Part shown: positions 59,469 to 59,524 of the stretch, piece by piece | How positions within the stretch are numbered: position 1 is the stretch's first letter | Layout: each line of letters begins with the position of its first letter | Source of the DNA: Escherichia coli | GTDB lineage: Bacteria; Pseudomonadota; Gammaproteobacteria; Enterobacterales; Enterobacteriaceae | Strand: one strand, 5' to 3' | NCBI RefSeq assembly: GCF_003334355.1 | Contig: NZ_QOWP01000003.1 | DNA: 64,000 bases | Position numbers and translations under genes: made by a program | The notes under the pieces: model-generated | The model's input: the letters and a program-made list of their open reading frames with translations, nothing else | Database searches by the model: none | Told to the model about the DNA's origin: nothing

Positions 59469-59524
59469 ATTCCCATAAACTCAGATCCTGCGTGAAGCAG
59501 CAGTAAATCTGAGTTTATGGGAAT
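59469..59524. promoter_or_regulatory. melAB regulatory region: two identical 18-bp MelR sites in inverted orientation, centres 38 bp apart, flanking a likely CRP site
   Basis: ATTCCCATAAACTCAGAT (59469-59486) and its exact reverse complement ATCTGAGTTTATGGGAAT (59507-59524), seen directly; assignment to MelR is from knowledge of the melAB promoter. Confidence 0.6.

Follow-up and report, generated by a model that had tools for sequence, protein, structure and literature searches.

A perfect 18-bp inverted repeat between melR and melA of Escherichia coli as the probable pair of strong MelR operator sites

The melR-melA region and its inverted repeat

The window analyzed here, namely the whole 64-kb stretch of Escherichia coli DNA, carries melA and melR as divergently oriented neighbors separated by an intergenic region of 282 bp (59392-59673). 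The gene melA (58036-59391, minus strand), the first of melAB, is an open reading frame of 451 amino acids that codes for an alpha-galactosidase and scores 736 bits against the NCBIfam model NF011657. The gene melR (59674-60582, plus strand) is an open reading frame of 302 amino acids that codes for an AraC/XylS-family regulator, the protein predicted to bind the repeat considered below, and scores 636 bits against the MelR equivalog model NF007693, whose cutoff is 253. The MelR encoded in the window possesses both N222 and R273. Over 461 bp spanning the region, the DNA shows 100% identity with many E. coli genomes, including that of K-12 MG1655, on which the published MelR work was done, with the genes annotated as melA and melR. 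In NC_000913.3, 282 bp likewise separate the same two genes, and the annotation shows no binding-site features between them.

Within this divergent intergenic region lies an inverted repeat whose left arm, ATTCCCATAAACTCAGAT, occupies 59469-59486 and whose right arm, ATCTGAGTTTATGGGAAT, is its exact reverse complement at 59507-59524. The two 18-bp arms are separated by a gap of 20 bp (59487-59506), and their centers, at 59477.5 and 59515.5, are 38 bp apart. The initial annotation of this DNA had reported just such a perfect 18-bp inverted repeat between melR and melA with arm centers 38 bp apart, and both a direct reading of the letters and a pattern search agree with it in sequence and coordinates.

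The repeat is real and far beyond chance. Searched as a pattern with up to three mismatches, the 18-mer has exactly two matches in the 64-kb window, namely the two arms, against an expectation of 0.04 from dinucleotide shuffles, none of 100 of which gave two. In our own scan for perfect inverted repeats of at least 16 bp with a loop of up to 60, this 18-bp pair was the sole one in the window and also the longest; an 18-mer inverted repeat arose in none of 200 first-order Markov simulations, in which even 14-mers averaged 0.03. A repeat finder further widens the symmetry to imperfect arms of 42 nt (59445-59486 and 59507-59548) that are 76% complementary and cover the weaker MelR sites on either flank.

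Placement of the repeat on the published MelR operator map

Footprints, gel shifts and Fe-BABE cleavage data have been published for MelR, which binds 18-bp sites designated 2', 2, 1, 1' and R; a consensus 18-bp site is present at sites 1 and 2, and the CRP site CRP1 lies between the two (PMC2377442). In the same map, distances counted from the melR start put the center of site 2 at -174.5 and a second CRP site, CRP2, which is required for melR transcription, 41 bp upstream; the start of melR itself lies 237 bp upstream of that of melAB (PMC2377442). The melR -10 hexamer is CATAAT (PMC2377442, PMC6392122).

Two of these landmarks are independently recognizable in the window. The hexamer CATAAT is found on the plus strand at 59640-59645, and CRP2 (59600-59621) possesses the core CGTGCTCCCACTCGCA at 59603-59618, with three mismatches to TGTGA-N6-TCACA and its center at 59610.5. 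A start 7 nt after the hexamer and a start 41.5 bp from the CRP2 center coincide at 59652 on the plus strand, which we take as the start of melR transcription, with CRP2 thus centered at -41.5. Counted from 59652, a site 2 centered at -174.5 falls at 59477.5, which is exactly the center of the left arm. Similarly, subtracting 237 from 59652 gives 59415 (minus strand) for the melAB start, and the arms are then centered at -62.5 (site 2) and -100.5 (site 1) of melAB, with the gap between them centered at -81.5. The value of -100.5 for site 1, reached here by arithmetic, was reportedly also given by Belyaeva et al. 2000. In short, the published positions all map onto the window without adjustment (PMC2377442).

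The initial annotation had placed the arms at about -100.5 and -62.5 of the melAB promoter and the melAB start about 25 nt upstream of the melA ATG. The first of these placements agrees with the published positions, with -100.5 again coming from arithmetic (PMC2377442), and the second is borne out by the start estimated at 59415, which leaves a leader of 24 nt before the melA ATG at 59391, such that the A of the ATG is +25.

The left arm (59469-59486, minus strand) would then be the strong 18-bp site 2, which reads ATCTGAGTTTATGGGAAT on its own strand and is centered at -62.5 of melAB and -174.5 of melR, and the right arm (59507-59524, plus strand) would be the strong 18-bp site 1, identical to site 2 in sequence and opposite in orientation. 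Two identical 18-bp sequences thus flank CRP1 in the window just as the published arrangement has them (PMC2377442). The base identities point the same way. The consensus G at position 5 contacts N222 of MelR and the consensus G at position 13 contacts R273 (PMC2377442), and ATCTGAGTTTATGGGAAT carries a G at both. Site R is described as overlapping the melR start, with G at position 5, a non-consensus A at position 13 and an orientation opposite to that of site 2 (PMC2377442). In the window, 59645-59662 reads TTCTGATATTCCAGGAAA on the plus strand and overlaps 59652; it agrees with the consensus at 11 of 18 positions, with G at position 5 and A at position 13. Since site 2 is read on the minus strand, the two sites are oriented oppositely, as published.

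Hence, we assign the arms, with a probability that we put at about 0.96, to MelR sites 2 (59469-59486) and 1 (59507-59524) of the divergent melR-melAB control region. The identification rests on position and on G5/G13 rather than on a letter-by-letter comparison with the published 18-mer, and a full-text literature search for the letters of the 18-mer gave no match. The element is already known: it is the long-characterized pair of strong MelR sites, and its biology is of the textbook kind. The picture drawn by the initial annotation, with two MelR sites and one CRP site, is incomplete, for the system also comprises the weaker sites 2', 1' and R and a further CRP site.

The two weak sites on the flanks can be placed by symmetry. 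Site 2', which overlaps the melAB -35 region, is put at 59449-59466 by a 20-bp offset from site 2, with its center at -42.5, a figure reportedly given by Belyaeva 2000. Read base by base, this stretch matches the consensus at 7 of 18 positions on the plus strand, that is, inverted relative to site 2, and at 3 of 18 if taken as a direct copy. Sites 2 and 2' were reportedly described by Grainger 2003 as a direct repeat. Site 1', an auxiliary upstream site whose existence is published (PMC2377442), falls by mirror symmetry at 59527-59544, with its center at -120.5; it matches the consensus at 12 of 18 positions on the minus strand, inverted relative to site 1, against 5 of 18 for a direct copy. 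The literature describes the promoter-proximal MelR half-site as the weaker one. Site 2' is occupied only when melibiose is present (PMC2377442). Over the 58 orthologous sequences described below, site 2' retains conserved columns at C59448, TCC (59450-52), TTCC (59456-59) and GAG (59465-67), and site 1' at AAAG (59536-39) and AGAG (59541-44).

As for the promoters themselves, the position of the melAB start points to CATGAT (59422-59427, minus strand), at -12 to -7, as the probable melAB -10 element. This hexamer differs between genera, with CACCAT being the commonest form, and its columns carry moderate information. A scan of 59350-59720 for consensus sigma-70 promoters and for terminators found nothing; for promoters, such an empty scan is uninformative since both are activator-dependent.

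The published mechanism, read onto these positions, gives the following course of events at the locus. Each 18-bp arm would take one MelR monomer through its two helix-turn-helix motifs, with N222 touching base pair 5 and R273 base pair 13 (PMC2377442), and as the arms are inverted, the two monomers would point in opposite directions. The strong sites 2 and 1 would always be occupied by MelR, and a CRP dimer would enter the low-affinity site in the gap only with the help of the MelR on either flank. With melibiose, MelR would also fill the weak site 2' over the -35 region and so activate melAB (PMC2377442), whose transcription would run leftwards from about 59415. Without melibiose, MelR at sites 2, 1, 1' and R would form a repression complex that keeps the melR promoter, with its start placed at 59652, switched off (PMC2377442).

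Conservation of the sites, the spacer and a protein-DNA contact

The melR-melA intergenic region is found in 5401 of 5426 complete E. coli genomes. About 1012 of these 5401 carry a diverged allele with 80-90% identity to it, the sampled ones being 84.5-86.5% identical. Our E. coli alignment comprised the window and four further sequences, among which the diverged alleles are those of ST95-32 (L001) and FDAARGOS_1264 (L002), 301-582. Across these five sequences there are no indels, and neither site 1 nor site R nor either -10 hexamer varies. In both sampled diverged alleles, site 2 has one or two changes, about 9 of the 20 positions of the CRP1 spacer differ and the stretch between site 1' and CRP2 is strongly diverged. 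Between site 1' and CRP2 also lies a short G+C-rich palindrome, CCCTCT-GGGA-AGAGGG (59580-59595), in a stretch that varies more within E. coli than most of the intergenic region.

To look across genera, we scanned from MelR with one genome per species, which yielded 80 loci, 62 of them with a divergent melA. These 62 loci possess two inverted 18-mers resembling the consensus, and the site-to-site start offset is 38 bp in 58 of them and 39 bp in the other 4. The 38-bp-offset loci together with the window gave 58 distinct sequences from Enterobacterales and Vibrionaceae, in which the arms mostly carry 1-2 bits per column. Almost every Enterobacteriaceae locus has the beginning of site 2 at 76-79 nt upstream of the melA ATG; in more remote genera, Providencia and Photobacterium among them, this distance rises to as much as 118 nt. 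The two arms are perfect in just 2 of the 58 sequences and most often differ by three mismatches. The rarity of perfect arms, together with the retention of the sites and their spacing, argues that what is conserved as a functional unit is two MelR sites a fixed distance apart; perfect symmetry, as judged from these sequences, is a feature of K-12-type alleles. The same scan recovered, in several Citrobacter genomes (L061-L069), a second MelR-like gene with 78-80% identity and no melA N-terminus within 1.2 kb upstream, which suggests a paralogue that regulates something else.

These alignments bear on whether the repeat could act as a nucleic-acid hairpin, be it a DNA cruciform or the stem-loop of an RNA terminator, attenuator or processing site, rather than as protein-binding sites. 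As single-stranded DNA, it folds into an 18-bp stem of -19.4 kcal/mol (z = -8 against shuffles). Over the 58 orthologous sequences, 85.8% of the cells pair and 11 of the 18 pairs have changed on both sides, with joint arm changes in 41 cells against 17.8 +/- 5.5 in column shuffles, none of 500 of which reached as high. However, joint changes would be just as expected in related lineages if one protein reads both arms, and here a common recognition motif drifting from lineage to lineage, as in the S273 clade described below, accounts for them together with relatedness. Moreover, the arms are imperfect in 56 of the 58 sequences, and the two outermost pairs are broken in about half. The repeat also lies upstream of both starts (59415 leftwards and 59652 rightwards) and is thus absent from both known transcripts; it has no T-run, and a terminator scan found nothing there. 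Further, published mutations and Fe-BABE cleavage locate MelR monomers at individual 18-bp sites (PMC2377442). We therefore regard the hairpin as very improbable and continue with the arms as MelR sites.

If the arms are read by MelR, then a change in the DNA-binding residues of the protein might be echoed in the sites, and such an echo is seen at operator position 13, which in the window corresponds to 59474 and 59519. Where MelR has R273, position 13 is G in 97 of 102 sites; where it has S273, position 13 is not G (instead A or C) in 11 of 12. The S273 form belongs to a Buttiauxella-type clade (L047, L049, L050, L051, L054 and L056), in which the second helix-turn-helix reads AGFHSSSSFY against AGFRSSSRFY, that is, with R269H and R273S. 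The apparent co-variation of residue 273 with position 13 fits the published contact between R273 and base pair 13 (PMC2377442). The replacement of both arginines alongside the loss of G13 from both strong sites looks like a natural re-wiring of a protein-DNA contact that genetic work in E. coli had mapped, and the change at residue 273 and position 13 was probably a single evolutionary event. One of the clade's loci, L054 (CACSKA010000008.1), is labeled Chryseobacterium sp. 18061 and has a Buttiauxella-like melR-melA with 81% MelR identity and H269/S273; this assembly is probably contaminated or mislabeled.

Operators for dimeric regulators and transposon ends are both classically marked by perfect inverted repeats, and the repeat here could in principle be either of these, lying in the mel region by coincidence. 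Its coincidence with the mel genes is hard to sustain, as the 38-bp offset recurs in 58 melR-melA loci at a similar distance from the melA ATG, and this conserved position and offset tie the repeat to those genes. For an operator of some other dimer, 18-bp arms with a 20-bp gap would also be far larger than is typical, and the arm sequence co-varies with residue 273 of MelR. Hence, such an origin strikes us as highly unlikely. A remnant of a mobile element is dismissed along with it, given the single copy of the repeat in the 64-kb window, which speaks against both, and the lack of a transposase or target-site duplication nearby.

With the arms again taken as MelR sites 2 and 1, the gap between them calls for separate treatment. 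The published CRP1 is a low-affinity 22-bp site, which in the window spans 59486-59507, is centered at -81.5 of melAB and has the core TGCGT-N6-GCAGT (PMC2377442, PMC1635313). In this register, the spacer matches the CRP core at 5 of 10 positions, and a recognizable CRP core is not evident. It does match the CRP consensus at positions 7 (G59492) and 16 (C59501), and changes at these very positions inactivate CRP1 (PMC2377442). CRP needs contacts with MelR to occupy its low-affinity site at the melA promoter (PMC1635313). The initial annotation had named the 20 bp between the arms as the likely CRP site, to be checked by a CRP motif scan of 59487-59506. The location stands on the literature (PMC2377442, PMC1635313), but the sequence lends it little, with its 5/10 core and lack of conservation; the scan for TGTGA-N6-TCACA with up to three mismatches returned no match in that interval. 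The assignment of the spacer to CRP thus rests on the published experiments because its sequence match is poor.

Across the 58 distinct orthologous sequences, the spacer (59488-59505) is fixed in length and carries 0.04-0.5 bit per column, and in the published register it agrees with the CRP core at 3.6 of 10 positions on average. The only preferred bases, all of them weakly so, are T at 59491, G at 59492, C at 59501 and A at 59502. The retention of length without sequence raises the prospect that CRP is positioned almost wholly by the flanking MelR: at the spacer, CRP may be placed almost entirely by MelR contacts or, alternatively, the co-activation of melAB by CRP may be specific to Escherichia. 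These two readings, the MelR-placed or Escherichia-specific CRP and the Buttiauxella-type re-wiring, would together go slightly beyond the known literature, and we offer the pair as a tentative proposal that is somewhat more apt to fail than to hold.

MelR among related regulatory systems

The MelR sites of the K-12 melAB promoter were worked out by the Busby laboratory (Webster 1989, Belyaeva 2000, Wade 2001, Grainger 2003, and Samarasinghe 2008, which is PMC2377442). The repeat is best equated with the MelR sites 1 and 2 and CRP1 of that promoter as the same element, with the DNA, the positions, G5/G13 and the orientation of site R all in agreement.

Beyond this identity, the closest likeness is to AraC at araC-araBAD, with its sites I1, I2 and O2 and its CRP site. 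Both are AraC/XylS-family sugar regulators that act in a divergent intergenic region through monomer sites of about 17-18 bp, with a weak promoter-proximal site filled only in the presence of the inducer, CRP as co-activator and autorepression via distant sites (PMC2377442). In contrast, AraC uses half-sites in direct repeat and a simple loop of two molecules, whereas MelR has its sites 1 and 2 inverted, with CRP in the gap, and needs four molecules to repress. A second parallel is that of CytR and CRP at deoP2, where, too, a CRP site is filled only by cooperativity with a specific regulator (PMC1635313). There, however, CytR sits between two CRP dimers and represses, whereas at melAB a single CRP dimer lies between MelR molecules and co-activates.

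The melR-melAB region is one of the best-studied control regions of the AraC family, and our finding rediscovers its sites 1 and 2. As such, it serves as a positive control, in which a reading from sequence alone located real operator sites and correctly inferred their positions and the transcription start. To the biology of MelR it would add small points for the specialist, namely that the perfect symmetry of the strong sites is allele-specific, that the CRP spacer appears to be conserved in length only and that operator position 13 seems to track residue 273 of MelR.
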